Positions 4,883 through 42,943 of a stretch of DNA of 43,284 nt are shown piece by piece. Origin of the DNA: Planctomyces sp. (lineage in GTDB: Bacteria > Planctomycetota > Planctomycetia > Planctomycetales > Planctomycetaceae). Under the pieces are notes generated by a model. That model was given only the letters and a program-made list of their open reading frames with translations. It did not search any database and was not told the origin of the DNA. Numbering within the stretch: position 1 is the stretch's first letter; each line of letters begins with the position of its first letter. The stretch lies in contig JANNDA010001144.1 in assembly GCA_031387195.1 (NCBI GenBank), positions 1 to 43,284 on the forward strand, in the 5' to 3' direction. Position numbers and translations under genes: made by a program.

Positions 4883-4990
4883 CGGTGGCGGCTTCGGTCG
4901 TTCGTTCGCTTGCGGTGAGTCGATTTCGTTTGGTCTCAGGGTGTGGCGAGTTTGTTTTCACATCCCGCTTTGCTGTTCGGTGAGCATTCA

Positions 4991-16808: not shown

Positions 16809-17061
16809 CTAAACAATTCTGCGGAACTTTTTTCAATCGGCCTGACTCTATTCGCCCCTCAAGAGATCGCCGTTGCGAACAGGTGGGCTCGGCGTTTTGA
16901 TGTGTCGGGCTAACGGTCGGTTGAAAATGTGCCGCGTGCGCCACAAATGTTTTCAATGCTCAACTAAGTTTGCGGTCGCTACGCCGTCTAAGGACGTAGC
17001 GAAAGAGTGCATGCGATTCCGTCGGCACTTGGCCTCAATGAAAAACGAGAAAGAGGTTCCC

Positions 17062-23847: not shown

Positions 23848-26800
23848 TCAGACCAGCAATTTGCTGAAATCGAAGGTGAAGGCTTCGTCGATTTCGGCGA
23901 GCGTGCTGAGGACATCGTTACCGGAGCCCCCCGCGATGGTGTCACGCTCTGCACCGCCATCGACGTTATCGTTGTCGTCTCCACCAAGGCAGACATCGCG
24001 TCCGGCACCACCGCGGAGCGTGTCGCTGCCGTCGTCTCCTAGCAACACATCGTTACCGGATTGACCATCCAGGAAATCGCTGCCATCACCACCGGAGATG
24101 ATGTCGTTGCCGGAGCCGCCGGTGATGGAGTCTGCGCCAGCTCCACCGCTGATGGTGTCGTCGCCCGTACCACCGTCGATCGTATCGCTGCCGGTGTCTC
24201 CAAAGATCTTGTCTCGGCCATCACCTCCGGTGATTAGGTCGGCACCGATTCCGCCATCGAGCCAATCGTTGCCGACACCACCTGAGATCGTGTCGAAACC
24301 ATCGCCGCTGCTGATGGAATCGTCGTCGTTACCACCATTGATGTTGTCGGCGGCAGCACCTCCGATGATCGTGTCTTTTCCGGAGCCGCCACTGATGAGG
24401 CCGCCAACGGGACTCGACCGAATGCGATCGGGGCCGGTGCCTCCAGTCAGTGTCACGGGGCCATTGAAGCCACTGGCGTCAATGAGGTTTCCGAGAGAAT
24501 TCGATGCGATCAAATTGGCGCGTTCGATGGATGAGAGCGTGTCCGAGCCGTTTCCGGTGAGCAGCGTCGGGGTCAGGACTTGGTCGAACCGCGAGGTTTG
24601 AATGACCAAGTCGATGCCGTTGCCTCCTTCGAGGAGATCACTGCCCGCACCACCCAGGAGTGTGTCGTCTCCGTCGCCTGCGTGCAGAATGACATAGCCG
24701 GGAGTAAACCGACTGGCGTCGAGTTTGTTCTTGAGGGAATTGCCGAACAGCTCCGCGTGCTCGATGCTCGCCAGTGGGTCAGTGCCGTTCCCGACGATCA
24801 GATTCGTTGCCAGGACGAAGTCGCTCAAGGTCGAGTCGATGATCCAGTCGATGCCCGTGCCGCCGTCGATGGTGTCGTTGCCGGTTCCAGCGAGCACCGT
24901 GTCGTTGCCTGATCCGGCATAGATCTTGTCGTTGCCGTTTCCGGTTTCGATCCGGTTGTTCGCTCCGTTTCCGGTGATGATGTCATGGCCGACTGTCGTG
25001 AAGACATTTTCTAAGTTCGCTGCTTGACCCGCTCCGCCGGTGATCAGTTTGCGATTTCGGTGAGTGGCTGTGGCGATGTCACTCGTCAGGTTCACGACGA
25101 CCCCGGCAGGCGGTGTCAGGCCCCTGAAATCGAGCAAGTCGATCCCTTCGTTGGCCATTTCGATGACCACATCGGTTTCAAGCACAGACGCATTGAAGAA
25201 GAGGTAGATGTCGTCCCCTTGGCCACCGACGATCGTGTCGCTTCCGGCGGCTCCGGTGAACGTGTCTTGGCCATTGCGTCCTTCAAAGCGATTGTTGGCC
25301 ACGCTGCCGAGGAACGTGTCCTGGCCCGCGCCGCCGATCGCGTTTTCGACATTCACCGCTTGGCCGGCGGCTCCGGTGATGACCGTGCGATTGAGGTGCG
25401 TGCCCAGTGCGTTGTCTTTGGTCAAATCGACCAGCACGTTGATCGTGTCGGGGAGCGCGCTGAAGTCGAGCCAGTCGGTTCCTTCGCCAGTCAGTTCAAT
25501 CACCGTGTCGATTTCTGCGATGTTGCAAGCGGCGAAGACATAGAAGTCATCTCCGAGTTCACCCAGCAACCGATCGTTCCCCTCGTCGCCGGTCAGTGTG
25601 TCATTGCCGCTGCCGCCGTTGATCGTGTCGTCGGCGAGTCCACCAAAGAGCGAATCATTTCCGAACGTCCCCGCCGGATTGCTCTGGGTCAGTGAGAAGA
25701 ACAACCCGCTGACAAACGTCATCACGGCGTTGTCCCCGACGATCCGATCGGTGTCGCCTGCGCCACGGATCGTGTCGTTGCCGAAGCCGCCGATGAGGAA
25801 GTCGAGGCTGGTTCCGCCGGTGATGTCGTCGTTGCCACCAGAGGTCGTGTCGCTGGTGGCGATATTCGTGAGCAGGCCACCGCTGAAATTGGCCGTTCCG
25901 TGATCACCGACGATCACCGCCTTCGACGTGCTTCCCGTCGCATTGATCGTGTCGCCGCCGCTGCCGCCGAAGATGACATTCTGGCCGGCGATGGACGTGA
26001 TGGTGTCGTTGCCGCCGAAGGCCACCGAGTTGGTTTGAACGTGAGTCAGCACACTGCCCGTGAAATCCGCCGAGCCGTTGTCGCCGAGGATCACGACATC
26101 CGCACTGCTCGCTGAGACGTTGATCGTGTCCGCACCGCTCCCGCCGAAGATCACTTCGCGACCGGCGGTCGATGTGATCGTGTCGTTACCGCCGTGAGCC
26201 GCGTCGCTGGTTTGAATGTGCGTCAGGACTCCGCCGATGTAATTGGCCGAGCCGTTGTCACCCAAGATCACGGCATCCGCCATGCTGGCCGACGTGGCGA
26301 TGTTGTCCGCACCGCTGCCACCGAAGATGACGTCGCGACCAAGTCCTGAGCTGATCGTGTCGTTGCCGCCGATGGTGGCTGAGACGCTGATTGCGAGGAA
26401 ATCAGTATGCACACGACCGTCGGTCTGATTCTCCGGCGTGGTCGAAATGCGATAGCGGCTGGTGGCGTCCAGCGGGATCGACCAGTTGGGCGAGACGGTC
26501 AGGCTCGTCGTCGTGTTGCCGGTGATGAGACGCGGTTCTTGAGTGAAGCCGGTGCCGTTGTTGATTGAGACATACAGGCCGACGAGTCCGATGTCGTTGC
26601 CGTCGGGAACAGGGAAGTTGGCCGCGCTGTCATTCAGCGTGCTCTGGTTGGTGAAGGGACCGGTTGCCAGCGCGGTGATCGGATCGGGAGCGAAACCGAG
26701 TCGCGTGACAATCGGTCGGTTGCCGTTGGTATCGGCGTCGCCGAAGAAATCGACTCGGCCCATGTCGCCGAAGATGACGTCGTTGCCGAGTCCGCCAGTG

Positions 26801-29800
26801 ATCGAATCGTTGCCCGCTCCACCGAAGAGGAACAGCGGCAATGTTGAGCCGCTGGCATCGACGACGTCGTTTCCGCCTCCGGCATCGAGCGCGAAGCGGC
26901 CGTCGGCGAGCTTCACGACTTGCAGAGTCATTGCACCTGTCGGCAACGAATCCCAATTGCCGAGGAGCGTCAGGACATTGTTCGTGTGCGAGACAATTCG
27001 CAACTCTTCGTCATTGTCAGCACGGAAGACCTGCCCGCGCAGATCCAGCCCGGCGAACGGCGAGCCGGTGAAGGTGATCTGCGAGCGACCGTCCACAAGA
27101 TTGCTGGCCGAGCTAAACAGCGGATGCAGCACCGCATCATCCTGCGTGATTGATTCAACAGCATTCAAGCGGATCGTCACGTTGTCGCCGGTGATGTTGG
27201 GCTGATTCGGGTCAGGCTGATCATCGCCGGTGTGCGCGAACGTCCAAGCTTGGTAGCCGTCTGAACGAGTCGGCGTGCCGAGCACCTTCAGGTTGTTGAA
27301 GCCGCGACCGAGGTTGAGATCAACGACCTCCAATTGATTGAAGGTGATCCCATACGTCTTGAACTGCCCATGTAGCACGACACCATCGACGTTGTCCGGT
27401 CCCATGTGGAACCCGGTGATCGTGTTCGCGGTCAGGACACCGGAGCTGTCGGCGGGACTGTCTTCGTCGTGAACGAAGATCGTGTCGATGCTCTGCTCTT
27501 CGTCGGCGAAGAAGTTGACGCTCTGCGTGGTGATTGCGTACTTCGTGATGTCGGAACGCAGACCTGCTCCCAAATCGAACGAGTCATTCAGCGTCAGGAC
27601 CGTCGTGCCAGCCACCGTCCCTGCAGCTTGTGCGAGGATCAGTCGGAACTGATCGAGTGCCGTGTTGTTGATCGCTTGTGTGACGGTCAACGTCTTGCCG
27701 ACGAGGGTCGCCAGCAAAACGCCGGAACCTAAGTACGTCTGCAAGTTAGCGGTCGTCACTGTCATGTGCGTCGCATCAACGAAGCCGACGACGTTGCCGG
27801 TCGAGGCGTTGATGTTCGTCTCGCCGGGAAGAACGAGCGCGCTGTTGACGTTTAACGAGCCTTCGTCTCCGCCACCGTTCACGGTCAGCGGGCCGAGGAT
27901 GCGGCTGAGCGTGTTCGGGTGCGGCGCGAAGACTTGTTTGTCACCGCCATCGACAAAGTTGTCGTCGATCGCGGTTGTTGTCACGACGACCGGTCGATCC
28001 CAGTCGCCTGCGGAGAACGTGACAGTCAGAGTGCCGTCTCCGTTGTTCGTGACGCGCGAATCGCTGCTCGACACTGTGACTTGCACCGCCTCGTGACGAA
28101 TGCCTCCCGTGCGGGTGGTGACGGTCATTTCCGGCGTCACGATCACGATCACGGGATGCGTCGGTTCGGCGGTGAGGACCACGTCGTAGGTGTCCGAACT
28201 CATGTTCTGCGTCGTGATCGTAGCGATCTGGAACGGAGTCGGGCTGATCGTACCGCTGAGCATGTAGGTTCCCGTGCGAGTGCTGTAACCCGTCGCGGCC
28301 AGGTAGTACGTCCCGGTCACAGTCGGCGTGTAGATGATGCGTGATTGCAAGCCGAAGTAGTCGTCATTGAAGGCCAGCTCGGTCGAGCCGTTGGTGCCGA
28401 TCAGCCGCAGCATCGGATCGGTGAGCGAGTTCCCGTTGAGGTCGAAGGTGTAGGTGAAGCCGACTTCCATCGAGATGCGGAACCAATCTTGATCGCCACT
28501 GCTATCGACGTTGCCGTTTGCCGAACCGGGCAGAACAAGACTCGCCCCAGTCGCGGTGCTGGCGGGAATCTCGCCAGCGACAGACGTGTTGAGCCGATAC
28601 GTCCCCGTCGTGGCGTCGATGTAGGAGCCAGCATTGAGCGTGAATGTGCCATCGGCCGTTGGCGTGTAGACCAGATGCGAACTCAGCCCCGGCCCACTGT
28701 CGTCGTCAGAGGCCACCTGAGTGAGATTGCTGTCGAACAAGCGGAGGAACGTATCCCGCAGCGTTCCTTGGCCAGAATCAGAGCCGTCCATGTCGAACGT
28801 GTAGGTGTTCCCCGCCTTAAGCGTCACCAGATAAGTGTCTCGTTCGGCGGCGACGGAAATCTCACCGCTGCGTGAACCGGGAACGGAGATGCTCGCAGGA
28901 GACGGCGGTGTCGAGATCGTAAAAGTCGTCGTGCTGTCAGGCAGGACGGTCCATTGATGGAACACGGTGACGGTGTTGTTCGTGTTGCTGATGACCGTGG
29001 CGGAGGTTGTCGGCGTCACGCCTCCCTTCGCACTTTGGATGGCTCCCGTGCCGCTGGTGAGCGTGATGGTCCGGCCCACAAGGCTGTCGGTCACGAACGT
29101 CCCGCCGGTGACATTCAGGGTCACGATCTGTGCTCCCCCTTCGACCACATCGGTTGAGCCGCCCGTTTCGCGAACAAGGACCGTCGGGGCGTCATCGTCG
29201 TTGATGCGGACGAGAACCGGATTGGTCACTGCGGCGGCGAATCCGTCGATTGTGTAGGTGTAGGAAACGGCGATCGATCCGGTCACCGCCTCAAACTTTC
29301 CTTCGGCCAGCGCATCGGGCACCGCTTGCAAGAAGACAATCTTGTTGCCGACCACGGCGAATCGGGACGGATCGCGAGCGACAAGATTGACCGTCACGGT
29401 CACCGCCGGAGTCGCGTCCGGCGTTTGTGGCAACCCAACGTAGAACGTGGGGCGTACCGGTGCGAAGTTGACCGTCGTCGGGACCGCCAGATCGGCGTTC
29501 CCTCCCGACAGACCAAAGTTGAGCAACCCGGTGTGTTCCCCTTCGCGAACAATGTCTTGAGCCGCGCTGAGCGTGACGGTCTGCGGAGCGGTTGAGCTGA
29601 AGCTGAGCGACGAGGCTGACGGCGAAAGTTGTCCGTCCGGGTTCGACAGCGCGACGGTCACGGTCCCCGATGGTGTCTTCGTCAGTTGAATCGTGAGCGT
29701 GTCTCGTTCGCCCGTTTGATTGCCGTCGCCCCCTTCGATCACCGCCGTCCCGTCGCCGCTTTCGGTGACGATGATCCCCGCTTGGTCGTTGTCGTTGATC

Positions 29801-32800
29801 TGCACCGACACGCCAGGAACGGCGAGTCCGTCGAAGAGTTCGATGCGATATACGCTCGCCGTCGAAACGGTGATGTTGCCGTTGAGCGTCAGCGTGGTCG
29901 CGGTGTTTGACAAGATGAGCCGCTGCTGTCCGCCGCCGGGTCCGCCGACAACCTGCAAGATGCGGCCACGCAGCCCTTCGCCTGCCGTCGGGAACAATGT
30001 GGTTCTCGCGGTGTCGGTGAAGGTGGTTCCGGTGCTGCTCGTCGAAGGCCGACCGACGAGCGCGTCATCAATGCGAATGAGATACGAGCTTTCTTTCGTC
30101 GGCGAATCATCAATGTTCCACGGACGATCGACCGTCACGATCGAGCCGCCGGAGATTCCGGTCACGAAGCGCTGCTGACCCGCACCCGGCCCGCCGGTGA
30201 TCGTCAGCTTGCGACCAATCAGGCTGTCGTTGAGGTTGGTCGTGTCTTGAACCAGAGTCGTCGTCGCGCCGGCGGAACCATCGACGTTGAAGCGTGCTCC
30301 CGCTCCCGTCACGGAGAAGTTGGTCGAATCGTCGGTGAGCAAGTTGCCGTCTTCGGCACTGAGTTGCAGCAATTGGATCGGCGTTGAGGCGGTCACATTC
30401 AGCGGGTCCGTGATCGTCGTTGTCGATGGAGCGAGCACGACGAGCGTGCCGTTGTCGGCGCGATCGTCGGCAGTGACTCGCGTCAGGTTGGCCGCGTTGA
30501 TCGCGAGCGCGAGGCCGGAGGCAACTTGCGCGACGGAACTCACGCCGCTGTCCGGAACCGTGTACGTGACGAGCTGCTCGCCCAACTTGATTTGATACTG
30601 CTTGCCAGGCGTGATGGGGCCGCTGACGGTGATCGTCGATTGAATCATGCGCCGCGCGGTGACGTCTTGCAGAGGACTCGACGATGAGGCCGCTTGCTGA
30701 GCGTTGTTGACCGCCGTCTTGATCGCGTCCAACGTCGCGCTGACGTCTCCGCCCGCAGACGCTGTGACCGGAATGCTGTCGATCGTCAGCGTGTAAGTTC
30801 CTGTCGGTGTGCTCGTGATTTCGAGCAACACTTGCGTCGCTTTGGAAACGCTGGTCACGTTGGTTGCGGCGGTCATCTGGCCGGAGACCGAGCGGACATC
30901 GGCGACGACGATGTGGTTGATGACGCCGAAACGAACTCCCTCATCAGAGTTGTCGTCGTAAGCGAATGTCGGCGAGTCACCGAGTTCTGGCCGCGTGAGC
31001 AAGCCCGCCGCGTCCGTGAAGACCTGGCTCGTCGCTCCGACCGTGACGGTCTGCGGAATGAACCAGTTGTCGCGAGTGAACCGCAACGCGACCGACGTGC
31101 CGTCCGCCGAATTGATTGCACCCGGAGCCGGACTGCTGACGCTAAACGCGCGAGTTCGCAATTCACGTTGCTTCTCGGTCATCAACGGGGCGAGCGCTTT
31201 GACGAGGATGTCGGTCGTCGGTTGATGAGTCAGCACGACCGTGTACTGATCGGTCTGGCCCCCCTCGGCGATGATGGTTGCCCCGTCGCTCTGACGAATG
31301 ACGACGCCGGGTTCGTCGTTGTCGGCGACGTTGGCGGAGATGCCGTAAAGCTTCTGCGCGTCGTAACGCGGATCAACGCTCTCGACCCCGTGCGTGACGA
31401 TACCGCTGTGACCGAGCAGATCGTTGCTGTCCACCGGCGGCGTGGCTCCCGACATGTTGAACGTGTCGTTGCCGAGTCCGCCGAGAATCTCCGTCGCGAA
31501 CGTGGGACTCGTGCTCTGCACGAAGAAGCGATCGTCCCCTTCGGCCCCGTCGATTTTCAGCGATTCGATGTTCGCGAAATGCACGTTGAGTCCGGCACCG
31601 AAGACGCCGTTCTCTGTAATCACGAAGTCGTCACCGAACTCGGTCCCGATCGCGATGAGCGAATCGAAGCCGTCGCCGCCGTCGATGTTGACTGGTGCGT
31701 TGACCGCGTACTGAATCAGATCGCCCCCCGCACCGCCCGAAATGTCGGTGCGCGCTCGCTTCGAGTCTTCTGATCCGACGAGCGCGAACGCTTTGATTTG
31801 GAAGTTGTCGTTCCCTTCGTCGCCGTTCAACGTGAGCACCGCGAGGTTGTGATAAACGGTAAACGTGTCGCTCCCCGCTCCGCCGTTAATCGTCATCGGC
31901 GCGCTGACGCCGTTCGACAAGAAGCCGCGCGTCGTTTCGATCGTGGCGAACTCGTCCGCAATCGCGACGTTCGCGAAGTCGTGCGTCCGTTGCGAGCGGA
32001 AGATTTGCCCGATCTGGAATGTGTCATCCCCGTCATCGCCGTTGAGCACGACTTCTGCGGACGTGTCGTCGGAGACGAACGTGTCGTTGCCGAAGCTGCC
32101 GTTAATCGCGATCCGCTCGACGCCGATGTAGTGGATGACTTCCGCGTTGAGATCGTCGTTGAGCAGCGCGACGAACGCGCTCCCACCATCGGTGCTGGCT
32201 CGCAGCAGGATCTTGTCGCTGTTGACCGTGCCGGTGACTTGGAAGATGTCGGTCCCCACTTCCGAACCGGTATCGAGCACCGTGATAACGGAACTCGATT
32301 TACCGCCGTGATAGGTGATGAGGTAAGTGTCGCTGTCTTGCTGCCCGTTGAGCGTGTCGTTTCCTTCGCCGGAAATGATGACGTCCTTGTTGAACGGAAC
32401 TTTTCCCTCGTCAGGCACTTGAGCGCCGGTCAGGCCGTTGTCGCCATAGATTTCGTCGCTCGCTCCTTCGCCGTCCAAGCGATCGTTCCCCGCGCCGCCG
32501 GAGAGATAGTCGTCGTTCTGCGCACCGAAGAGCGTGTCGGCTCCCTCGTCGCCGTAGACGTAATCGCTGCCGAGTTCCCCGAAGATCACGTCGTCACCAG
32601 CACCGCCACGAATCGTGTCGCGGCCATCGCCGCCGCTCAGCATGTCGGCTCCTTCGCCACCCAGGATGAGGTCATTGTCCGCGTTGCCGTCGATCGTGTC
32701 CGCTCCGACGCTCCCATCAATCGTGTCGGCTCCGACGCCGCCGTCGATCGAATCCATATCGTTTCCGCCAGTGATCGAGTCATCGCCGGCGAACCCGCGA

Positions 32801-35800
32801 ATCAGATTCAGGCCATCGCCGCCATTGATCGTGTCGTTCCCCGCACCACCTTCGATGAGGTCATTCGCCGTGCCGCCATCAAGCAAGCTGCCGACCCGAC
32901 CGCCGGTGAGCGTGTCGTTGCCACCCTCGCCGTAGAAATAGACCGGGGCTCCGACAGCCGTATCGCGCGTGCGACGGCTCAAGACGATCAACTTGTCATC
33001 CCCTTCACCGGCATGAATCGTGACCGGCACCGTCAGCGCGGGGCTGACGAAGAACTGATCCGCACCCGCTCCGCTGGTCCCCACGATCGAGGTCACGTCT
33101 CGGAAAAACTGACTGTTGCCAAACGCCGAGAGCCAGACTTCCCCGGCGCGATCACCCGCACCGATGTAGAAGACTTTGTTAGTCCCGCCGCCGGACAAGT
33201 CCAACGTCAGCACGCCCCCTGCAACCGTCGTGTAAAGGTTCGTCAGGTCATCGAAGTCTTGGCCGATGTACGGGATGTCGAATTCGATCGTGAAGAGGTT
33301 GAAGCGAATGTCGATGATCGTGAGTCGGAAGATCGAAATGCCAATGCTCAGTTTCACATAGACGTCCGCACGCACCTCGATCACGAAGCTGCGGTCGTAG
33401 ACCGAGTTGTCGGTGTTGAGGTCGAACTCCTGGGCGCGGATTCGATTTTCCAGGTCGCTGTTGTCGGTGTCGTGCAGGTTCCAGACTTGTCCGAAGAAGA
33501 CAATCGCCTCGACGCCGATTTCCAGTTTGATGATCGACACGTTGAAAACGATCTTCACTCCCAAGCCGATGCCTCCGACGATCTTGGCCTCGTCCGGATC
33601 GGAGTTTGATCCAACCGCCTTAATGGAACCTGGTCCATTTTTCGCGAGTCCCTCGGCATCGTTGAAGTAGAAGCCGTTCACGAGATCGGCGGGGTTGCGC
33701 GTGTGGTTGTATCGGTCTAGCCCCGTGGTATCGAACGCGACCTCGAAGTCCGCTCGCGCCTCAAAAGCGACGACAACGTAAGGTACGAAGTCGACTCCGA
33801 ATGCCGTGACCGCCTTGTAGATCGTGCCGCCCGAATCATCCAAAACCTTTTCCGCGGCCTTCTTCGGAGGGATCGGAATTTGTTGGTAGAGGTACAGGAA
33901 CAATTCCGGCGTGTGGAACTTCAGCAGGTTGGTGTCCTTCAGCACGTTGGCCGGGTTGCCGAGCTTCGCATCGCCAAAGAGCAGGTGGAATGATTGCGCG
34001 GCGTTGTGGTTGGTCGGATCGTTGAGAATCGGCAGTTCGATGGGATTGAAGCCACCGCCACCACCGAAGACGTTAATGAGCACGTTGACGCCACCGCCGA
34101 AGAAGCCTTCAAACTTGCCTCGGCCTGCGAGCATTTGCGTGGCGATGAAGTCGAGTGCCGCATCGTGAATGTGCTCGTCGGTCGCGGCGTTGCCAGCAAG
34201 TCGGCGAACCTGCGCGAAGATCGTGTCGGCGTTGATACTTTCCGACGTTGACGGCGCACCGAACGGCTTCGCATTCACGTTGATCGGTTGCAGATTGACC
34301 GGTGACGTTCGCGCGGCCGTGCCGTCGATCATGAAGTCGGTCAGAGTCGTGTTGCCAATGTCGATCCACGCCGTCCCGGCCAGCGTCGAAAGTGCTTTGA
34401 CATACTGCAACCGCTCCGGCATCCCGCCAAAGCTCTGGCTGCTCCAACCGAAGTCTGCGCGATAGAGCAATTCCCACGGAACCGGAGCCCAGGTATCGAG
34501 CAGATTGCCCGGTGCTCCGACAAGCCACGCTTTGCTGCCTGATCCAAAACCGCCGCCACGAATGAACGCGTCGATGTTCGATCCCGAATTGTTCTCACCG
34601 AGCACAATCCGGCTGATCGCTTCCGCCGCTCCGGCATAATCACCGACCTGCACTCCGCCACCGAAACTGTTCGCGCTCGTGTACGGCGAACGACCGAGAA
34701 CCAGCGAGATGATCGGGAAGGCTTCGTTGGTCAGCAGATAGACGATCGCATCCATCGGGTCCATTGCCGTTTCCAAACGAGTCAGCGCCGCCCCCATGAA
34801 GTCTTTGACGAACGAGACCAACTCGAATTGCGTGTGATCGAAGGAGATCGTCGGCTTGATCTCGGTGTGTGATGTCGTGGTGCTGTTGATAACCGAAGTG
34901 AAGCTCCAATTGCCAATCGTGAGGTCTGTGCGATAGGTCGGCAGCGCCGTTCCAGGCGGCAGATCGGTCTTCAGTTGCAGATTGATTGTCAAACTGTCGT
35001 TGGCCGTGTGTGCGGCATTGGTGCTCGTGAACCCGCCCAGGATGATCCCTCGCGCAGCGGTTTGAACTTGCGGAACCGTCGGTCGAGCCGCCGCTCCGAG
35101 CGAGCCGATCAACTCACTCAACTTCAGCTTGCCGTTCGCATCCGTGTCATTCAGTCGGAAGGCGAAGTCACCGTGCAGCCCCGTGTTCGCTCCGATCTGA
35201 GTGATCTGGTACGGCAGCGTGCCGAGCGTTCCTTTGAGGTGGCCGACTGCCGGATCAGGAGTTGGCAGCGCGACGTCGAGCTTGATCGCGAGTCCGTTGA
35301 TCGTGGACTGATCCAAGTAGACGCCGTCCGCCACGCTGATGCCGAATTTCAACGGCATCGTAAAGCCGAGCCGCACTTGCGATTGACCGTCGATCTTCAA
35401 ACCGAGTCCCGGCAGGATCAGGTCGATATCGGTCGGGATCGGAAGCAACCGTGATGCGACCGCGAGGTTCATGTCGAACAGCACATCGTTCGGCATGTTG
35501 ACGACGACGATGTCTTCCAAATTGACGAACGTGTCGCCGTTCTTGTCCTGTAACCAATTCAGCCCGCCCGGCCCGAACGCATCGAAGATTGCCTGCTTTG
35601 CTTTGTCAGGAGTCAGGATGCCGTGAACGAAATCGAAGTTGTCACCGACCTTGTCTCGAATCTGCGTGAAAAGGTCCGCCGCCTGCATGAGCTGCGTCCC
35701 GACGAACGGTAGCTCGCGCGAAAAGATCGCCGCATCGAACGCGAAGTCGAGCAATCGGAACAGCTCTTGGAAGCCGGATCGCAGACCTTGAATGTTGCCG

Positions 35801-38800
35801 TTCAAGCCACGCGACAACAGCGTCGTCCGCACGCTCGGTCCCGTCGCAGTCAGCGTGGTCGTGCTGCCGACTCCAACCGTGACCGTCGTGATCAATGACT
35901 GTTCTAAGTCGGTCGGATAATGAATCGGAATCGTCGCATCCGCTCTGCCGGAGAAGATTGTTGATGTCCCTGCTGGTGCTTGCGCGAACGTCTGGCGGTT
36001 GTTTGAGCCGCCGCTGAGCGTGACCGCGTAACTGGCGGGGGTCGTGCTCGCACCAGCTCCGTCGCTGTCGAGACGGTAAGTCCCGCCGATGATCTCCACG
36101 CTTCGCGCACCGAATAGCGCTTGGAACGAAAGGTCCGTCTGCTGAGCACTCACGTTGAAATTCATCGTCGTTGCGTTACGCACGAACCCGGCGTGACTGC
36201 TCGCGAGATCGACCCCTAACTTCAGGTTGAGCGTCCCCACCGTCGTGACGTTCACGAGTCGCGTGTTGTTCAAATCGATGATCGCACCAATTGTGTCGAG
36301 ACCGAGCGCCGCCAGATCGACTCCCGTCAGCGCGGCCAAGTCGAGATGGAAGCGCTGCAACGAAGTCTGCGACGGGCTGTAGGTGAGATCGAGCTGCAAC
36401 GCCTCGGTTCCCGAAGTGCCGTCGTGAGTCAGTTCGACGTTCGTGAAGCCGAGCGCTATGAGCGTGCTCTTCAATACTTGCAACGATCGCGGCGGGTTGA
36501 GATTCAGCGCGGCGGCGATCACTTTGAATCGCTCGCCGAACGGGAGCAATTGCCCCAAGCTGCGATTGAGGCCCGTCAACGGCTTCGACAACTCCGGGTC
36601 ACTGTCTTGCAGGCCGACGAGATAATCGCCGGTCTGATCCAACAGCGTGAGGACTTGCGGGATCGTCAGTGTTTGCACGTCGTTTAGGAAGTCGATCGTC
36701 GTGTTCGATCCCGTGAACGAGAGCGTCGGAGCGGTCCCCGAATCGAAGGCGTTCGCGATGTTGATGCTCAACGGAGCGGTCGCCGACAGCCCGCCGAATG
36801 CCGACGTGATCGTGACCGGTGCGGTGATCGCGAAGGCTCCGGTCGGAGTCCCGTTGATGATCTTGGTCACATCGGCAAGACCTTCGAGCAATTCTCGCAA
36901 ACTCGCGAAGCCGTCCGCCGCATCGGTCCCCGCATCGGCGAACGACATGTTGAAGACCGCGCTGCCGGACGCGCTGCCGCCGCTGATCGCGACATCAACC
37001 GGTCCCCACAACCCGGTCGCCGCAAGATTTGTCGTACTCACCGCGACCGATGAGGACAGCGTCGCGCCACGGAATCCGGCATGAGCCGTGGGCACATCGC
37101 CGTCCAACGGGCTCCCGTCGATCAAACGAGTCTGGCTGCTGACGCCGATGTACCGGAGGTTCGTGCTCGCGGAGTCCTGACCAAGATTCGATGCGTCAGT
37201 CAGACCGAGAACCGTTGCCGCCGTGGAACCGCTGAGGTTCGTCACCGCGAACGTTCCGCCGCCGGTCGTGTAATCCAACAGCGACGGGTTGTCGGAACCG
37301 GTCGGCAAGCCGGTCTTGAACTTCGTTTGGTTCACTCCGAGTGCCGTGTTCGCCGTGCTTTGTATGCGGGCGATCAAGTCGCTGACCGTTGTCCCGGCTC
37401 CGTCGAGATCCACGTCGAAAGTGCTGCCGTCCTGCAACGTGATCTTGATGTCGTTGCCCGATGTCGTCCCGAATCCGGCTGTTCGAGTCAGCGACGAGAT
37501 CAACGTGGAATTCGTCACCACCGGTGCGTCACCGGTCGGAGTCAGCCCCAGCGCGATGCGCGCGAACGAATCGTTCAATGCCACGACTTCAAAGTCGCTC
37601 GACCCATTCGTGCCGTCAATCAGTAGCAGTCCCGTGTGACTCTCGTTGATACGAACCTCGAACTGCGCTGTCGTCAGCGAGGCCGTTGTCGCAGCAGTTT
37701 GAATCTTCTGCATGAGATGACCGAGCGTCACGAGCGACGCCTCGGCGAACAGCGTGAGCTCGCCGTCGAGCACTTCCGTCGCAGGCGAGCCGAGACTCAA
37801 TCCGCCAGGCGACGTGACCGCGAACGTCGCGCCGCCGGTGCTGCTATCAATCAAAATCAACGAACCGCGAGCCGCGTTGATCTTGGCGCTGAAGCCCGTC
37901 CCGGTCGGGTTGGCCACGTCATAAGCGGCGTTCAAAGCGGCGACCAGATCCGCCAGTGTCTTCGTGCCGATCGTACCCAGGTCAGCACCGAAGCTCGTTC
38001 CGTCTTTCAGAGTCACCGTGACGTCGTCACCCGCAACGGTCGTGAAGCCCAGCGTCGAAAGGAACGTCGTGGAAGGATCGTGGTCGAGGTTCACGACGAA
38101 GTTTGTGCCGTTGCTCAGATTGATTTGGATGTCATCTTTCCCAGCGATTGTCTCAACGCCGCGACCTCGGTTGAGGTCGCTCACCTTAAAACTCGAAGTC
38201 GTGCCAGAACCGAGATTGAATCCGTTGTGAAGCGCCGCCAGTTCAATCTCAAACGGCAGCGTCAACGTGCCCGACGGAGTCAGCGTCACGGAACCGCCTG
38301 TCGTGGCCACACCGTTGAGCGCACCCGTGCTGAACAACGCCGCCGCTTCCGTCAGCGCGTCGCCGCTTCCGCCGAGTGTGACTGCGGCGGTGAACTTCAG
38401 CGTCGGCGTTCCGGACGTGGCGTAATCGAAACCACTCACCGTCACGTTGGCACCCGCATCAGCCAGTGACACGAACTGCTGAATGCTGCGGAAGCTCGGC
38501 CCCTTGAAGCCGATGCTCTGCGCGACGATCAGCGGCGCGGTGAGGTAAGGACCGGCGCTCGCGTTGATCTTCAAGTCGGTCAGTGCCAGCGAACTGTTCA
38601 ACGCGGACACGCTCGCATTGATCGGCGAGTTACCCGTCTTATCGAGAATCACAAGCCGGTAGTTGGTCGTGTCGAAGCTGACTTCCCACTTGTTGGGTGC
38701 GACGCTGATCGGCGCGGAGTCTTTGATTTTCCGGATCAGATTCGCGAGCGTCGTGTTGGCATCGAGCGAACTCTGGGCCGTGCTGGAATTGAGATCGACG

Positions 38801-40971
38801 TCGAAGGTTGTCGGTCCGATCGTGATTCGGAGGTCGTTCCCCGCAACGGTTCTGACTCCCGTTCCGCTGTTGAGATCGCGGGCGAGCGTGTTTTCATCAA
38901 GCTGCCGCGTCCCCTCAGCGAGCAGATCGAGGTCGCGAGCCGCGAATGACTGATTCAACGCTTCGACCTTCAGAGTCCCTCCGCCGCCCGTCCGATCCGA
39001 AAGGGCGAGCGCACCGCTGCGTGGATCAATGCGGGCCTCGAACGTCCCGTTGGCCGCTGATCCCGACGCCGTTTGAATCTTGCTGATGACTTGCCCCAGA
39101 GTGGTGTCGGACGAAGTCAGATCGACGTTGAACATCGTCCCGTTGCTGAGCGTCACCTTGAAGTCATCGCCCGCCACGAACCGTAGTCCGCCGCCGTTGT
39201 TGAGCGAACTGACGAGCGTGCTGGTCGTCAGCGATTGTGTTTGCACGAGGCTCAAGAAATTCTCAGAGAACTCGCGCTTGAGATTCAGCATGTCGCCGAA
39301 GGTCGTCCCGGAAGCACTCAGCGGAATCGCGAAGCTCAACGCCTTGCTGTCGAACACGCCCAGGAAGTCGGCGAACCCCGAAAAGTGCGCGAGCATCTCA
39401 CTGGCGCTGACGAGCGAGAACGTCTTAATTCCAGCAGCCGTGAAGTTGTCCGAAGCGGTCAACGTGGGCGAGGCAAACAAATCAAACGTCGCACCAGAAT
39501 TCAGACTGGCCAGTGCATGGAGGCCGCTCGGCAATGTCACGGTGACGCCGCTCACCGTCGTCGTTCCATCGAGATTGACCGAGGCATTCGCGGTCCCGGT
39601 CTGCGTGAGCGTTGTCACATCCAGGCTTAGCAAAGCCGACGTCGCCGTCCCGTTGATGCTGTTGGTATTCACCGTGACGTCGGCGTTCAACGTCAGCGCT
39701 GTCGGGCTCGCAAAGTTGAGTCCCAAAAATCCGGAGTTGCCGACGAAGCTCGTCTGATTCAGATCCGCCCCGAACAGCAGGTTGCTCAGCGAGGTCGCCG
39801 TGAACGCGCCCGCCGCCGTTTCGGCCGCTCGCAGCGACCATTGCACGCGTGTCGCGAGATCACCGCGCAACGAATCGACGTTCACCAGCTTTTCAATGTC
39901 CGCTCCCAGCGACAGATCAACGCTCAATGTCGTCTGCACATCGAGCGTGATGTCGAGCGTCACGTCGCCGCTCGCCGTTGTTACCCCGGTCGCACTGACT
40001 CCGGCAATCTGATTGAGCGAGATGAGTGTCTGATACAACGTCGCGCCGCCGGCAAGGCCGTTGATCGTGTCTGCGAGCTTGCTCCTGAGCATCCCGCCCA
40101 AATCGTAAACGTCGCCGATCGCCTGCCCATCGAGAATGAACAACGTCTGATCGAGCTTGCCCGTCGCTTCCAACCGATCGCCAACTCCCGCCACTTCGGT
40201 CAGCCCGTTGACGAGATTGGTCTTGTTCGCCGCCCCCGCCACGTTGAGCGACGTCAACGACGCCCCGTTGTCAATCAGCACATAATTCTTGCCGGCACCC
40301 TTCTTGACCGTCTGCACGTTCTCAACGGTGACCATCGTCGTCCAAACGGGGACCGACGCCGTTCCCGTGTTCTCCTCGATATCCACCTTGTTCACGCCGG
40401 TGACGTGAATCCGCAAGTCCGCCGTCCAAGCCGACAAGTCCAACGTGTTCGAGCCGCTCCCCGCGACAAACAACTCAACGTTATTCACCGTCTGCCGCAA
40501 CGTCCCCGCCGCACCGCCGCCGGTCACATCACTGACGGCGATCGACGTCCCCGCCGCGTTGAGCGAGAGATACTCGTTGCTACTAATCGCCGACAAATTG
40601 AGCGTGTCCGCAGTCCCCGCCCCACCATCAATCGTCGTCGAACTCGCTTGCGAATACGCCGAGACAGTGACGAGGTCATCCGCCCCCAATCCGTTCACCG
40701 CTAGCGTGTCAGCACTCGCCACACTCTGTGTCGCCCCGCCTATCAACGCGACCGAGCTACTCGTAATGACGAACGAGTCGGGACTCGCCGTACCGTTCGA
40801 AGTAATCGCCGCCAGCAACGTCCGGTCTTCCAGTCGTTCCATCACTGGGCTGAAAAAGTCCGCGTGCTCCAAAGTCCTTTTCTGAATCTGGAACCCCTGC
40901 TTCAACCCTCGACTACGACCGAACTGGCGACATCGACGCGGAATGGTCCCCAACCAATTAAATAGCATCAT
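23848..40971 (-). CDS. Giant (5,707 aa) mosaic extracellular protein: LEPR-XLL-like N-terminal leader, repeat-rich adhesin-like body, two RTX (hemolysin-type Ca-binding) blocks, Calx-beta/cadherin-like sandwiches, two PPC domains
   Basis: Single uninterrupted 17.1-kb ORF. The N-terminus is ...SPVMERLEDRTLLAA. GGxGxD nonapeptide runs occur centrally (GGAGNDTINGGDGLNLIRGFAGDDSITGGNDMDSIDGGVGADTIDG...) and at the C-terminus. DND...EGG sandwiches are present (VQINDNDQAGIIVTESGDGTAVIEGG). PPC-like segments are present (DTYLVTLKAGNTYTFDMDG...DDDSG). The acidic/hydrophobic tail is ...LSTLAEIDEAFTFDFSKLLV. Confidence 0.9.
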   Translation of the reverse strand: MMLFNWLGTIPRRCRQFGRSRGLKQGFQIQKRTLEHADFFSPVMERLEDRTLLAAITSNGTASPDSFVITSSSVALIGGATQSVASADTLAVNGLGADDLVTVSAYSQASSTTIDGGAGTADTLNLSAISSNEYLSLNAAGTSIAVSDVTGGGAAGTLRQTVNNVELFVAGSGSNTLDLSAWTADLRIHVTGVNKVDIEENTGTASVPVWTTMVTVENVQTVKKGAGKNYVLIDNGASLTSLNVAGAANKTNLVNGLTEVAGVGDRLEATGKLDQTLFILDGQAIGDVYDLGGMLRSKLADTINGLAGGATLYQTLISLNQIAGVSATGVTTASGDVTLDITLDVQTTLSVDLSLGADIEKLVNVDSLRGDLATRVQWSLRAAETAAGAFTATSLSNLLFGADLNQTSFVGNSGFLGLNFASPTALTLNADVTVNTNSINGTATSALLSLDVTTLTQTGTANASVNLDGTTTVSGVTVTLPSGLHALASLNSGATFDLFASPTLTASDNFTAAGIKTFSLVSASEMLAHFSGFADFLGVFDSKALSFAIPLSASGTTFGDMLNLKREFSENFLSLVQTQSLTTSTLVSSLNNGGGLRFVAGDDFKVTLSNGTMFNVDLTSSDTTLGQVISKIQTASGSAANGTFEARIDPRSGALALSDRTGGGGTLKVEALNQSFAARDLDLLAEGTRQLDENTLARDLNSGTGVRTVAGNDLRITIGPTTFDVDLNSSTAQSSLDANTTLANLIRKIKDSAPISVAPNKWEVSFDTTNYRLVILDKTGNSPINASVSALNSSLALTDLKINASAGPYLTAPLIVAQSIGFKGPSFRSIQQFVSLADAGANVTVSGFDYATSGTPTLKFTAAVTLGGSGDALTEAAALFSTGALNGVATTGGSVTLTPSGTLTLPFEIELAALHNGFNLGSGTTSSFKVSDLNRGRGVETIAGKDDIQINLSNGTNFVVNLDHDPSTTFLSTLGFTTVAGDDVTVTLKDGTSFGADLGTIGTKTLADLVAALNAAYDVANPTGTGFSAKINAARGSLILIDSSTGGATFAVTSPGGLSLGSPATEVLDGELTLFAEASLVTLGHLMQKIQTAATTASLTTAQFEVRINESHTGLLLIDGTNGSSDFEVVALNDSFARIALGLTPTGDAPVVTNSTLISSLTRTAGFGTTSGNDIKITLQDGSTFDVDLDGAGTTVSDLIARIQSTANTALGVNQTKFKTGLPTGSDNPSLLDYTTGGGTFAVTNLSGSTAATVLGLTDASNLGQDSASTNLRYIGVSSQTRLIDGSPLDGDVPTAHAGFRGATLSSSVAVSTTNLAATGLWGPVDVAISGGSASGSAVFNMSFADAGTDAADGFASLRELLEGLADVTKIINGTPTGAFAITAPVTITSAFGGLSATAPLSINIANAFDSGTAPTLSFTGSNTTIDFLNDVQTLTIPQVLTLLDQTGDYLVGLQDSDPELSKPLTGLNRSLGQLLPFGERFKVIAAALNLNPPRSLQVLKSTLIALGFTNVELTHDGTSGTEALQLDLTYSPSQTSLQRFHLDLAALTGVDLAALGLDTIGAIIDLNNTRLVNVTTVGTLNLKLGVDLASSHAGFVRNATTMNFNVSAQQTDLSFQALFGARSVEIIGGTYRLDSDGAGASTTPASYAVTLSGGSNNRQTFAQAPAGTSTIFSGRADATIPIHYPTDLEQSLITTVTVGVGSTTTLTATGPSVRTTLLSRGLNGNIQGLRSGFQELFRLLDFAFDAAIFSRELPFVGTQLMQAADLFTQIRDKVGDNFDFVHGILTPDKAKQAIFDAFGPGGLNWLQDKNGDTFVNLEDIVVVNMPNDVLFDMNLAVASRLLPIPTDIDLILPGLGLKIDGQSQVRLGFTMPLKFGISVADGVYLDQSTINGLAIKLDVALPTPDPAVGHLKGTLGTLPYQITQIGANTGLHGDFAFRLNDTDANGKLKLSELIGSLGAAARPTVPQVQTAARGIILGGFTSTNAAHTANDSLTINLQLKTDLPPGTALPTYRTDLTIGNWSFTSVINSTTTSHTEIKPTISFDHTQFELVSFVKDFMGAALTRLETAMDPMDAIVYLLTNEAFPIISLVLGRSPYTSANSFGGGVQVGDYAGAAEAISRIVLGENNSGSNIDAFIRGGGFGSGSKAWLVGAPGNLLDTWAPVPWELLYRADFGWSSQSFGGMPERLQYVKALSTLAGTAWIDIGNTTLTDFMIDGTAARTSPVNLQPINVNAKPFGAPSTSESINADTIFAQVRRLAGNAATDEHIHDAALDFIATQMLAGRGKFEGFFGGGVNVLINVFGGGGGFNPIELPILNDPTNHNAAQSFHLLFGDAKLGNPANVLKDTNLLKFHTPELFLYLYQQIPIPPKKAAEKVLDDSGGTIYKAVTAFGVDFVPYVVVAFEARADFEVAFDTTGLDRYNHTRNPADLVNGFYFNDAEGLAKNGPGSIKAVGSNSDPDEAKIVGGIGLGVKIVFNVSIIKLEIGVEAIVFFGQVWNLHDTDNSDLENRIRAQEFDLNTDNSVYDRSFVIEVRADVYVKLSIGISIFRLTIIDIRFNLFTIEFDIPYIGQDFDDLTNLYTTVAGGVLTLDLSGGGTNKVFYIGAGDRAGEVWLSAFGNSQFFRDVTSIVGTSGAGADQFFVSPALTVPVTIHAGEGDDKLIVLSRRTRDTAVGAPVYFYGEGGNDTLTGGRVGSLLDGGTANDLIEGGAGNDTINGGDGLNLIRGFAGDDSITGGNDMDSIDGGVGADTIDGSVGADTIDGNADNDLILGGEGADMLSGGDGRDTIRGGAGDDVIFGELGSDYVYGDEGADTLFGAQNDDYLSGGAGNDRLDGEGASDEIYGDNGLTGAQVPDEGKVPFNKDVIISGEGNDTLNGQQDSDTYLITYHGGKSSSVITVLDTGSEVGTDIFQVTGTVNSDKILLRASTDGGSAFVALLNDDLNAEVIHYIGVERIAINGSFGNDTFVSDDTSAEVVLNGDDGDDTFQIGQIFRSQRTHDFANVAIADEFATIETTRGFLSNGVSAPMTINGGAGSDTFTVYHNLAVLTLNGDEGNDNFQIKAFALVGSEDSKRARTDISGGAGGDLIQYAVNAPVNIDGGDGFDSLIAIGTEFGDDFVITENGVFGAGLNVHFANIESLKIDGAEGDDRFFVQSTSPTFATEILGGLGNDTFNMSGATPPVDSNDLLGHSGIVTHGVESVDPRYDAQKLYGISANVADNDEPGVVIRQSDGATIIAEGGQTDQYTVVLTHQPTTDILVKALAPLMTEKQRELRTRAFSVSSPAPGAINSADGTSVALRFTRDNWFIPQTVTVGATSQVFTDAAGLLTRPELGDSPTFAYDDNSDEGVRFGVINHIVVADVRSVSGQMTAATNVTSVSKATQVLLEITSTPTGTYTLTIDSIPVTASAGGDVSATLDAIKTAVNNAQQAASSSSPLQDVTARRMIQSTITVSGPITPGKQYQIKLGEQLVTYTVPDSGVSSVAQVASGLALAINAANLTRVTADDRADNGTLVVLAPSTTTITDPLNVTASTPIQLLQLSAEDGNLLTDDSTNFSVTGAGARFNVDGSAGATTTLVQDTTNLNDSLIGRKLTITGGPGAGQQRFVTGISGGSIVTVDRPWNIDDSPTKESSYLIRIDDALVGRPSTSSTGTTFTDTARTTLFPTAGEGLRGRILQVVGGPGGGQQRLILSNTATTLTLNGNITVSTASVYRIELFDGLAVPGVSVQINDNDQAGIIVTESGDGTAVIEGGDGNQTGERDTLTIQLTKTPSGTVTVALSNPDGQLSPSASSLSFSSTAPQTVTLSAAQDIVREGEHTGLLNFGLSGGNADLAVPTTVNFAPVRPTFYVGLPQTPDATPAVTVTVNLVARDPSRFAVVGNKIVFLQAVPDALAEGKFEAVTGSIAVSYTYTIDGFAAAVTNPVLVRINDDDAPTVLVRETGGSTDVVEGGAQIVTLNVTGGTFVTDSLVGRTITLTSGTGAIQSAKGGVTPTTSATVISNTNNTVTVFHQWTVLPDSTTTFTISTPPSPASISVPGSRSGEISVAAERDTYLVTLKAGNTYTFDMDGSDSGQGTLRDTFLRLFDSNLTQVASDDDSGPGLSSHLVYTPTADGTFTLNAGSYIDATTGTYRLNTSVAGEIPASTATGASLVLPGSANGNVDSSGDQDWFRISMEVGFTYTFDLNGNSLTDPMLRLIGTNGSTELAFNDDYFGLQSRIIYTPTVTGTYYLAATGYSTRTGTYMLSGTISPTPFQIATITTQNMSSDTYDVVLTAEPTHPVIVIVTPEMTVTTRTGGIRHEAVQVTVSSSDSRVTNNGDGTLTVTFSAGDWDRPVVVTTTAIDDNFVDGGDKQVFAPHPNTLSRILGPLTVNGGGDEGSLNVNSALVLPGETNINASTGNVVGFVDATHMTVTTANLQTYLGSGVLLATLVGKTLTVTQAINNTALDQFRLILAQAAGTVAGTTVLTLNDSFDLGAGLRSDITKYAITTQSVNFFADEEQSIDTIFVHDEDSPADSSGVLTANTITGFHMGPDNVDGVVLHGQFKTYGITFNQLEVVDLNLGRGFNNLKVLGTPTRSDGYQAWTFAHTGDDQPDPNQPNITGDNVTIRLNAVESITQDDAVLHPLFSSASNLVDGRSQITFTGSPFAGLDLRGQVFRADNDEELRIVSHTNNVLTLLGNWDSLPTGAMTLQVVKLADGRFALDAGGGNDVVDASGSTLPLFLFGGAGNDSITGGLGNDVIFGDMGRVDFFGDADTNGNRPIVTRLGFAPDPITALATGPFTNQSTLNDSAANFPVPDGNDIGLVGLYVSINNGTGFTQEPRLITGNTTTSLTVSPNWSIPLDATSRYRISTTPENQTDGRVHTDFLAISVSATIGGNDTISSGLGRDVIFGGSGADNIATSASMADAVILGDNGSANYIGGVLTHIQTSDAAHGGNDTITSTAGREVIFGGSGADTINVSASSADVVILGDNGSADFTGSVLTHVQTNSVAFGGNDTITSIAGQNVIFGGSGGDTINATGSTSKAVIVGDHGTANFSGGLLTNIATSDTTSGGNDDITGGTSLDFLIGGFGNDTIRGAGDTDRIVGDNAVMTFVSGLFFSLTQSNPAGTFGNDSLFGGLADDTINGGSGNDTLTGDEGNDRLLGELGDDFYVFAACNIAEIDTVIELTGEGTDWLDFSALPDTINVLVDLTKDNALGTHLNRTVITGAAGQAVNVENAIGGAGQDTFLGSVANNRFEGRNGQDTFTGAAGSDTIVGGQGDDIYLFFNASVLETDVVIEMANEGIDLLDFRGLTPPAGVVVNLTSDIATATHRNRKLITGGAGQAANLENVFTTVGHDIITGNGANNRIETGNGNDKIYAGSGNDTVLAGTGNDTIDGGTGIDWIIDSTLSDFVLATNLIVGNGTDPLASIEHAELFGNSLKNKLDASRFTPGYVILHAGDGDDTLLGGAGSDLLEGGNGIDLVIQTSRFDQVLTPTLLTGNGSDTLSSIERANLIASNSLGNLIDASGFNGPVTLTGGTGPDRIRSSPVGGLISGGSGKDTIIGGAAADNINGGNDDDSISSGDGFDTISGGVGNDWLDGGIGADLITGGDGRDKIFGDTGSDTIDGGTGDDTISGGAGADSITGGSGNDIISGGDGSDFLDGQSGNDVLLGDDGSDTLRGGAGRDVCLGGDDNDNVDGGAERDTIAGGSGNDVLSTLAEIDEAFTFDFSKLLV
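23851..24400 (-). repeat. C-terminal RTX nonapeptide (GGxGxDxxx) block of the giant protein
   Basis: The stretch is GGSGKDTIIGGAAADNINGGNDDDSISSGDGFDTISGGVGNDWLDGGIGADLITGGDGRDKIFGDTGSDTIDGGTGDDTISGGAGADSITGGSGNDIISGGDGSDFLDGQSGNDVLLGDDGSDTLRGGAGRDVCLGGDDNDNVDGGAERDTIAGGSGND. The boundaries are approximate. Confidence 0.85.
25663..26370 (-). repeat. Four tandem 177-bp (59-aa) repeats inside the giant CDS
   Basis: The units start at 26370, 26193, 26016 and 25839. Examples are GGNDTISSGLGRDVIFGGSGADNIATSASMADAVILGDNGSANYIGGVLTHIQTSDAAH and GGNDTITSTAGREVIFGGSGADTINVSASSADVVILGDNGSADFTGSVLTHVQTNSVAF. The third unit is similar and the fourth is more diverged. Confidence 0.85.
28250..28890 (-). 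other. Two tandem bacterial pre-peptidase C-terminal (PPC)-like domains within the giant protein
   Basis: The first is SRSGEISVAAERDTYLVTLKAGNTYTFDMDGSDSGQGTLRDTFLRLFDSNLTQVASDDDSGPGLSSHLVYTPTADGTFTLNAGSY. The second is GNVDSSGDQDWFRISMEVGFTYTFDLNGNSLTDPMLRLIGTNGSTELAFNDDYFGLQSRIIYTPTVTGTYYLAATGY. Both fit the PPC pattern (D.D.Y.f....g....i.l......D..l.l.d..g......dD). The coordinates are approximate. Confidence 0.7.
32432..32935 (-). repeat. Central RTX nonapeptide block of the giant protein
   Basis: The stretch is GEGGNDTLTGGRVGSLLDGGTANDLIEGGAGNDTINGGDGLNLIRGFAGDDSITGGNDMDSIDGGVGADTIDGSVGADTIDGNADNDLILGGEGADMLSGGDGRDTIRGGAGDDVIFGELGSDYVYGDEGADTLFGAQNDDYLSGGAGNDRLDGEGASDEIYGDNG. The boundaries are approximate. 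Confidence 0.85.
37190..39230 (-). repeat. Array of about five ~100-aa modules resembling FliD / flagellin-hook-IN-type repeats within the giant protein
   Basis: The recurrent pattern is LNxGxGV..VAGxD..ITLxxGTxFxVDL....TLxxLIxKIQxA....FxAxI......LxLxDxTGGG..FxVxxLNxSxAAxxLGL. One example is SLNNGGGLRFVAGDDFKVTLSNGTMFNVDLTSSDTTLGQVISKIQTAS...FEARIDPRSGALALSDRTGGGGTLKVEALNQSFAARDLDL. Others start at LARDLNSGTGVRTVAGNDLRITIGPTTFDVDL, KVSDLNRGRGVETIAGKDDIQINLSNGTNFVVNL, TVAGDDVTVTLKDGTSFGADL and TSGNDIKITLQDGSTFDVDL. Confidence 0.6.
40807..40971 (-). other. N-terminal leader of the giant protein with a LEPR-XLL-like motif
   Basis: The sequence is MMLFNWLGTIPRRCRQFGRSRGLKQGFQIQKRTLEHADFFSPVMERLEDRTLLAA. 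It has a short hydrophobic patch, then an Arg/Lys-rich stretch, then LEDRTLL (codons at 40833-40813). Confidence 0.7.
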
Positions 40972-42641: not shown

Positions 42642-42943
42642 GTGATTTCCAATTCTAAAAAACCTTGGGCTCATCCGACCCAATGATACACAGACGCAAC
42701 TCGAAGCGATGGTCGATAATGGAAAATGGATTTGTCGAAGCATCTCAACAAGCGTGACATCGAAGGCGAACCGTCGCAGAAAATCGAGAATCTCAAAAGT
42801 CGTTTCGGATTTGTACAACTTCGCAACGGGTGCGCTCTGAGCCACATCCGCTTCGTCCTAGACGGATCGCTTTCGAGTGGCATCACATCGACTCGCTGGA
42901 AGTCATCCACTGACGATGCCAAACTCTCGCGCAACTTGGAAGT

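Follow-up and report, generated by a model that had tools for sequence, protein, structure and literature searches.

Giant surface proteins of planctomycetes are recognised by a basic stretch followed by ExLExRxLLA in the first ~55 residues (PF07595), by the absence of a Sec-type core and by calcium-binding repeats. The N-terminal leader was reportedly proposed by Studholme in 2004 as the export signal of a planctomycete-type pathway. Type-1-secreted RTX adhesins of the LapA, MpIBP, SiiE and FrhA types combine great size and acidity with a scarcity of Cys and an abundance of repeats; their C-terminal RTX region is followed by a short tail, and an N-terminal element could remain at the cell side. 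The planctomycete motif RRLxxExLExRxLLA figures in the literature as a putative novel export signal of the N-terminus; Tuwongella immobilis has it in 52 genes, 20 products of which were detected, 8 of them solely in the SDS fraction, and in 8 of the 10 longest proteins (4,016-10,566 aa; PMC8567305). Leader-bearing proteins of T. immobilis were recovered from cell-envelope fractions, and the leader is also found on trypsin-, Ig- and Calx-type proteins (PMC8567305). The combination of leader and RTX repeats has been published for a ~8,000-aa protein of Vibrio sp. VB16 (PMC10868602). Here, we analysed a stretch of 43,284 nt from Planctomyces sp. (contig JANNDA010001144.1 of assembly GCA_031387195.1; hereafter the window), in which a single gene of 5,707 codons encodes a giant protein with a leader of this kind at its N-terminus and RTX repeats near its C-terminus.

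The open reading frame (ORF) is a genuine gene. Since the G+C content of the window is 58-62%, a 17-kb stop-free frame is not attributable to chance, and the ATG at 40971 is favoured as the start because the alignment with the homologous giant P0124 begins at residue 1. The product of 5,707 aa has a mass of 588.7 kDa, an isoelectric point (pI) of 4.24 and 3 Cys; G, T, L, A, D and S are abundant, and scanning along the sequence revealed neither a Sec/Tat-type hydrophobic core nor a transmembrane segment. The sequence gives good support to the view that it is a giant, acidic, almost Cys-free, predicted calcium-binding fibre protein of the surface or extracellular space of a planctomycete-type bacterium. 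Giant leader-bearing calcium-binding surface proteins of planctomycete type are already a known kind, and current knowledge is not overturned. The ~800-aa domain, the FliD-like modules and the pair of PPC domains considered below are nevertheless not described in the papers on these giants (PMC8567305 and others).

An earlier note on this DNA, made from its letters alone, had called the protein a mosaic. This description was not borne out by BLASTP, in which the giant protein is collinear over almost its whole length with four other giants, P0123-P0126 (5,749-7,052 aa). The alignments comprise the N-terminal region, the modules, the central domain and aa 2183-3365, 3573-4030 and 4254-5378, with 41-45% identity over 1,150-1,530 residues for the stretch aa 2183-3365. 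P0001 and P0122 are partial homologues, 44% and 52% identical over ~2,100 residues, respectively, and the closest named homologue, P0001, comes from a metagenome-assembled genome (MAG) of Gemmataceae. A single-protein search for related loci found no relative among GTDB representative genomes. Part order and length are kept across at least 6 homologues, and the pair of PPC domains is the sole clear insertion relative to P0123-P0126, P0001 and P0122. As read from these sequences, the order of the family is a basic LExRxLL leader, ~110-aa modules, a ~800-aa domain with EF-hand-like loops, RTX, DND units and terminal RTX. It is thus well supported by sequence comparison that the giant protein belongs to a conserved family and is not a one-off concatenation.

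The same evidence bears on the integrity of the assembly. The window is a single contig of a MAG, contigs of this organism from other assemblies did not exceed 6.6 kb and carried neighbouring genes, and an independent contig across the giant gene was not found, all of which would suit chimerism or collapsed repeats. Collapse is unlikely, however, because the repeats diverge at the DNA level: the longest in the gene has a period of 177 nt with 2.2 copies and 77% matches, and RTX repeat units are 62-78% identical to one another. A chimera is strongly argued against by the collinearity with P0123-P0126, and the joins within the ORF are judged to be biological since the protein is collinear end to end with these four giants and with P0001 and P0122. 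The earlier note had named repeat collapse or chimera, as revealed by resequencing or long reads, as what would overturn its reading; the divergence of the DNA repeats and the homologues argue against both, and we regard an assembly artefact as extremely improbable.

The leader motif ERLEDRTLLAA lies at aa 44-55 (nt 40807-40842) and is preceded by a basic stretch, aa 1-43 holding 8 K/R versus 2 D/E; a hydrophobic core is absent. The protein thus has a basic stretch and ExLExRxLL(A/S) within its ~60 first residues, as the consensus of such leaders demands. The Pfam profile Planc_extracel (PF07595) aligned to it over profile positions 7-18 of 20 at 14.4 bits (E 0.032), below the gathering score of 25.5, and the NCBIfam profile LEPR-XLL (NF012209, cut-off 17 bits) gave no match even at E<=10, whereas P0122 and P0160, which served as positive controls, exceeded its cut-off at 33.8 and 35 bits, respectively. 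A custom hidden Markov model (HMM), trained on leader sequences taken from 33 other proteins and run on 794 six-frame segments of the window, found aa 44-57 of the giant ORF at E 9.8e-4. Its best match was an upstream Peptidase_S51-like ORF (E 3.5e-6), so that the two adjacent genes have the leader in common; the third-ranked was a chance match (E 0.7). Family homologues have the motif at the same position. Judged by its sequence, the leader is a diverged version of RRLxxExLExRxLLA, the planctomycete motif, with a longer spacer between basic stretch and motif than in described planctomycete giants. The LEPR-XLL-type leader claimed in the earlier note is therefore upheld by the custom HMM and not by the two curated models, and because both thresholds were missed the label 'LEPR-XLL domain-containing' is unsuitable by rule. 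The motif, its position and the homologues nonetheless place the protein functionally, as far as sequence can tell, with the leader-bearing group.

The pairing of an N-terminal with a C-terminal motif, held in the earlier note to be unusual, is shared by 25 or more cluster representatives, besides its publication for Vibrio (PMC10868602). Of the 150 relatives listed for the central domain (among 311), 28 have a LExRxLL-type leader, and 10 of these 28 have >=3 RTX motifs, P0123 and P0124 having 28 and 32. About 10 of the 120 best matches to the C-terminal 308 aa are small proteins with leader and RTX, and a third search added 5 further proteins with both. The NF012209 LEPR-8K giants, of which the Vibrio protein is an example, also combine a LExRxLL-type motif with C-terminal RTX/serralysin-like repeats over thousands of residues, and the relatives P0122 and P0160 pass the HMM of this group. 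In contrast, the giant protein has LEDR rather than LEPR and is not matched by that HMM, and its likeness to the Vibrio protein is one of architecture.

At the other end, an HMM scan of the whole protein, suggested in the earlier note as a check, established that the terminal repeats are of RTX type: the last 1,007 aa gave 256 bits over 16 stretches with Pfam HemolysinCabind, alongside partial NCBIfam matches to serralysin and RTX_toxin. Both RTX blocks predicted from the letters, central and terminal, were recovered by this family. The 59-aa tandem repeats were confirmed as well, being seen at aa 4864-5040 by self-similarity and in the DNA as the 177-nt period at nt 25943-26340; 112-aa serralysin-C-terminal-like units follow at aa 5104-5330. 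The final RTX nonapeptide begins at aa 5681, the protein end reads ...LSTLAEIDEAFTFDFSKLLV, and 18 residues remain, which agrees with the acidic/hydrophobic tail that had been noticed. The homologue fragment P0002, overall 48% identical to the giant protein, ends ...NAEVIDNLFTFDFNKLLV, with 13 of the 18 tail positions identical by manual count, and this conservation would fit a type-1 signal. Proteins related by leader plus RTX often end with an acidic stretch and a few hydrophobic residues, reminiscent of the type-1 signals of proteases and lipases; examples are ...DEDLQTIY in P0123, ...DNDLVTLF in P0124, ...EEAVVTIF in P0247, ...FVEVETFL in P0084 and ...GMDVVLP in P0107.

We tentatively favour an export of the giant protein that starts from its C-terminus and uses a type-1 system, while retention or processing would be the task of the leader; this is a leaning and falls somewhat short of an even chance. 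According to this proposal, the unfolded chain would leave the cell C-terminus first via an unlinked type-1 system, composed of an ATP-binding cassette (ABC) transporter, an adaptor and a TolC-like channel; what this system would recognise is the terminal RTX region together with the conserved tail of 18 aa. Once outside the cell, the sites of RTX and EF-hand-like type would fold upon Ca2+ binding. The basic LExRxLL leader, which is not a Sec signal, would emerge last and might serve retention, anchoring or processing at the envelope, so that the protein would stay as an adhesin-like surface fibre. Type-1 substrates typically have an acidic pI and hardly any Cys, and the giant protein (pI 4.24, 3 Cys in 5,707 aa) shows both, together with GGxGxDxUx repeats near its C-terminus. 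In these features of sequence, and not in genetic linkage, it resembles the type-1 RTX substrates. It differs from LapA-type adhesins in that neither a LapA-type N-terminal retention module with a LapG-type cleavage site, nor a LapG/LapD partner, nor a linked ABC transporter and membrane fusion protein (MFP) was detected, and in that just 18 aa follow its last RTX repeat. Several points speak against C-terminus-first export. The signals of model type-1 substrates measure roughly 50-60 aa, and the tail after the RTX repeats is shorter here; to our knowledge, there is no consensus model by which type-1 signals could be scored. The C-termini of the homologous giants differ, P0126 being without an RTX motif in its last 400 aa, and the leader can act independently of RTX because RTX-less proteins, including the S51-like neighbour, carry it. 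In the whole contig, no set of ABC, MFP and TolC genes was found, only a lone HlyD-family adaptor, in agreement with the statement of the earlier note that no intact type-1 system lies nearby; nor were genes for ABC, MFP or outer-membrane factor found within 10 kb of four genes that are related or combine leader and RTX (P0001, P0297, P0084 and P0107). We can only infer the export route, because such a set is absent from the contig and from beside these four genes. Planctomycetes are predicted to possess type-1 systems, and the majority of all type-1 systems are split between two loci, but ABC and MFP invariably lie together in such loci (PMC4793230), which the partnerless adaptor does not suit.

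Several of these points would be explained if the leader itself drove export by a pathway peculiar to planctomycetes and their relatives and the RTX repeats were structural calcium-binding repeats rather than a type-1 signal. The leader is carried by many proteins without RTX, among them the S51-like neighbour and the trypsin-, Ig- and Calx-types of T. immobilis, and is named a putative export signal in the literature (PMC8567305); none of the five loci examined has type-1 genes alongside, and the C-termini vary among the homologous giants. Yet the leader lacks a hydrophobic core, and neither a model of its cleavage site nor a machinery for it is known; P0002 shares the tail at the very C-terminus, and the acidic pI and near-absent Cys are those of type-1 substrates. 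Moreover, LEPR-XLL and RTX also occur together in Vibrio (PMC10868602), where type-1 systems of the classical sort are present. Leader-driven export is quite possible in our judgement, if somewhat less likely than the C-terminus-first route. The lack of any Sec or Tat signal would also suit a protein that is not exported at all, be it a giant intracellular or periplasmic scaffold or an untranslated or decaying ORF. This is very unlikely, for the stop-free frame of 17 kb is beyond chance at the G+C content of the window, length and part order are conserved in at least 6 homologues, the RTX, PPC and EF-hand-like calcium modules are of extracellular type, and leader-bearing proteins of T. immobilis were detected in envelope fractions (PMC8567305).

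Besides the two termini, the protein contains a ~800-aa unannotated domain (Table 1). The earlier note had set aside ~1,300 aa as having no motif that could be named, and a word-indexed search likewise made aa 1301-2600 appear to be an orphan region with one relative (P0001). This was overturned by an exhaustive HMMER search, which found 311 representative clusters related to the central domain at E<=1e-3; 63 of the 311 cover nearly all of aa 1301-2110, and many sit in proteins of 2-7 kaa. The domain has no match in Pfam or among PDB sequences. Its two EF-hand-like loops are located where they had been claimed, lie within its best-conserved core and are retained across the family, whose consensus there reads ...WLxDxxGDGxxTxxDI... 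for one and ...DLxDPxGDGRLTLxEL... for the other. A structure prediction, proposed in the earlier note for the unassigned part, could be obtained with AlphaFold2 (AF2; pLDDT 79, pTM 0.64) and shows long beta-hairpins alternating with helical bundles, but a search of this model against the PDB by Foldseek gave no meaningful fold match. Beta-barrel proteins returned by Foldseek were rejected as fold relatives, as their TM was <0.1 and strand length alone accounted for the match. The central domain is a candidate new domain family.

A second conserved block follows. Nowhere is the giant protein more hydrophobic than in a stretch of this block, KIVGGIGLGVKIVFNVSIIKLEIGVEAIVFF, at aa 2463-2493 (nt 33490-33582, minus strand; Kyte-Doolittle 19-residue mean 1.84), which is amphipathic and beta-strand-like rather than helical. 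A profile search with alignment A1, contaminated by the RTX flanks of the aligned full-length sequences, gave credible family matches only to P0272, P0122, P0001 and P0273-P0276, and all the names returned were 'hypothetical' or generic RTX labels.

For aa 1-2600, neither Pfam nor NCBIfam recognised a domain and PDB sequence searches found nothing. In aa 58-577, T, S, A, G, N and L make up 65% of residues; this region has no known domain in Pfam and is homologous to the N-terminal part of P0001. The ~110-aa modules that follow had been called FliD/IN-like. Their repetition is real, but the likeness was not established, since Flagellin_IN matched at E 0.043 in 2 of the 8 modules only and Foldseek at E 0.3 at best. 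The AF2 model of one module (pLDDT 77, pTM 0.76) has a beta-beta-alpha-beta-beta-beta fold, and its top PDB matches by Foldseek were all FliD D2-D3 (for instance PDB 5h5t and 5h5w) at non-significant values (E 0.3-0.9, TM 0.27-0.50, probability 0.57); a profile search of the modules against PDB sequences did not find FliD. In contrast to FliD, the giant protein has neither coiled-coil termini nor a flagellar context. A LapA match in one module (E 0.031) was at chance level, and so were all matches, among them Filamin, Cadherin_5, CHU_C and TgMIC1, of the Pfam search with ten sub-segments at E<=1.

Between the two RTX blocks, degenerate GxGxD-type repeats span aa 2954-3152, and DND...EGG units recur near aa 3203, 3713, 3910 and 4250 by self-similarity. 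The units had been described as beta-sandwiches; they do repeat, but with no match in Pfam or in a PDB sequence search of aa 2900-4690 the structural label was not established. The two PPC domains proposed from the letters were recognised by Pfam (PF04151, 2 stretches; 28.2 bits against a gathering score of 25.9, E 3.6e-6), the copies being 38% identical to each other. They are absent from the matching position in the homologous giants, where the alignment with P0123 has a gap, and look like a lineage-specific insertion.

Table 1. Features of the giant gene and its neighbours in the window (nt positions of the window; aa numbering of the giant protein).
Feature	Position (nt)	Strand	Basis or remark
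Whole giant gene	23848..40971	(-)	5,707 codons, single terminal stop
N-terminal leader, aa 1-57	40801..40971	(-)	Pfam sub-threshold match and custom leader HMM
T/S/A/G/N/L-rich region, aa 58-577	39241..40800	(-)	composition
Repeated ~110-aa modules, aa 578-1262	37186..39240	(-)	self-similarity and alignment
~800-aa unannotated domain, aa 1301-2110	34642..37071	(-)	HMMER relatives
EF-hand-like loop 1, DKNGDTFVNLED	35512-35547	(-)	position confirmed
EF-hand-like loop 2, DTDANGKLKLSEL	35110-35148	(-)	position confirmed
Second conserved block, aa 2275-2640	33052..34149	(-)	within 42-45% identical stretch aa 2183-3365, common to P0123-P0126
Central RTX block, aa 2641-2900	32272..33051	(-)	HemolysinCabind 68-76 bits; 27-nt DNA period
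Degenerate GxGxD-type repeats, then DND...EGG units, aa 2901-4025	28897..32271	(-)	self-similarity
Two PPC (pre-peptidase C-terminal) domains, aa 4026-4243	28243..28896	(-)	Pfam
Terminal RTX region, aa 4690-5689	23905..26904	(-)	HemolysinCabind
C-terminal tail TLAEIDEAFTFDFSKLLV, aa 5690-5707	23851..23904	(-)	candidate uncleaved C-terminal secretion signal
Peptidase_S51-like gene, upstream, co-oriented	41328..42845	(-)	Planc_extracel E 0.0037; LEPR-XLL 11.4 bits, sub-cut-off
Orphan HlyD-family periplasmic adaptor, 295 aa	15641..16528	(-)	NF002939 73 bits, sub-cut-off
2,265-aa ORF converging on the giant gene	16873-23670	(+)	178-nt gap between stops

Among the neighbours, the S51-like protein carries the leader FGLEQLEPRQLLTA (motif at ~nt 42521), a better copy than that of the giant protein, and has no RTX repeats; the longest ORF, as annotated, probably begins upstream of the true start. 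The HlyD/YbhG-type adaptor has an N-terminal membrane anchor and is monocistronic, with no ABC, resistance-nodulation-division (RND) or outer-membrane partner adjoining. As it has no ABC partner and reached only 26 bits, below the cut-off, with TIGR01843 type_I_hlyD (the precomputed annotation being PF25881 HH_YBHG), this gene was rejected as one half of a type-1 system. The ORF at 16525-16956 (minus strand), with a composition like non-coding frame noise and no Pfam match, was also discarded. The 2,265-aa ORF probably encodes a signal peptide (MRQQHWLRAVLVALAMGAGITG...), and nothing in Pfam or NCBIfam matches it. In addition, positions 4943-6361 (plus strand) encode a 472-aa protein in which TPR repeats are joined, in an uncommon fusion, to two domains at the C-terminus that resemble the RNA-polymerase alpha-CTD (PF03118, 143 bits, 2 stretches). 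The contig also contains the housekeeping genes Ldh_2, G6PD, MoaC, an epimerase, EPSP synthase and RsmB.

Giant leader-bearing proteins rank among the largest and costliest gene products of planctomycetes. Since leader, terminal RTX region and conserved tail co-occur in it, the giant protein offers with its collinear relatives a clean test of which end drives export, and the value of the present analysis lies in annotation and in framing such an experiment. The ~800-aa domain family is its most original by-product and merits a family definition. It is further conceivable, although we consider it unlikely, that in RTX-bearing giants the LExRxLL/LEPR-XLL leader would be no export signal but a retention, anchoring or processing element of fibres secreted C-terminus first by a type-1 system, and that a new family of adhesins would have the ~800-aa domain as its functional head. 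If this were true, the 'extracellular motif' of planctomycetes would be linked with the proteobacterial LEPR-8K proteins.

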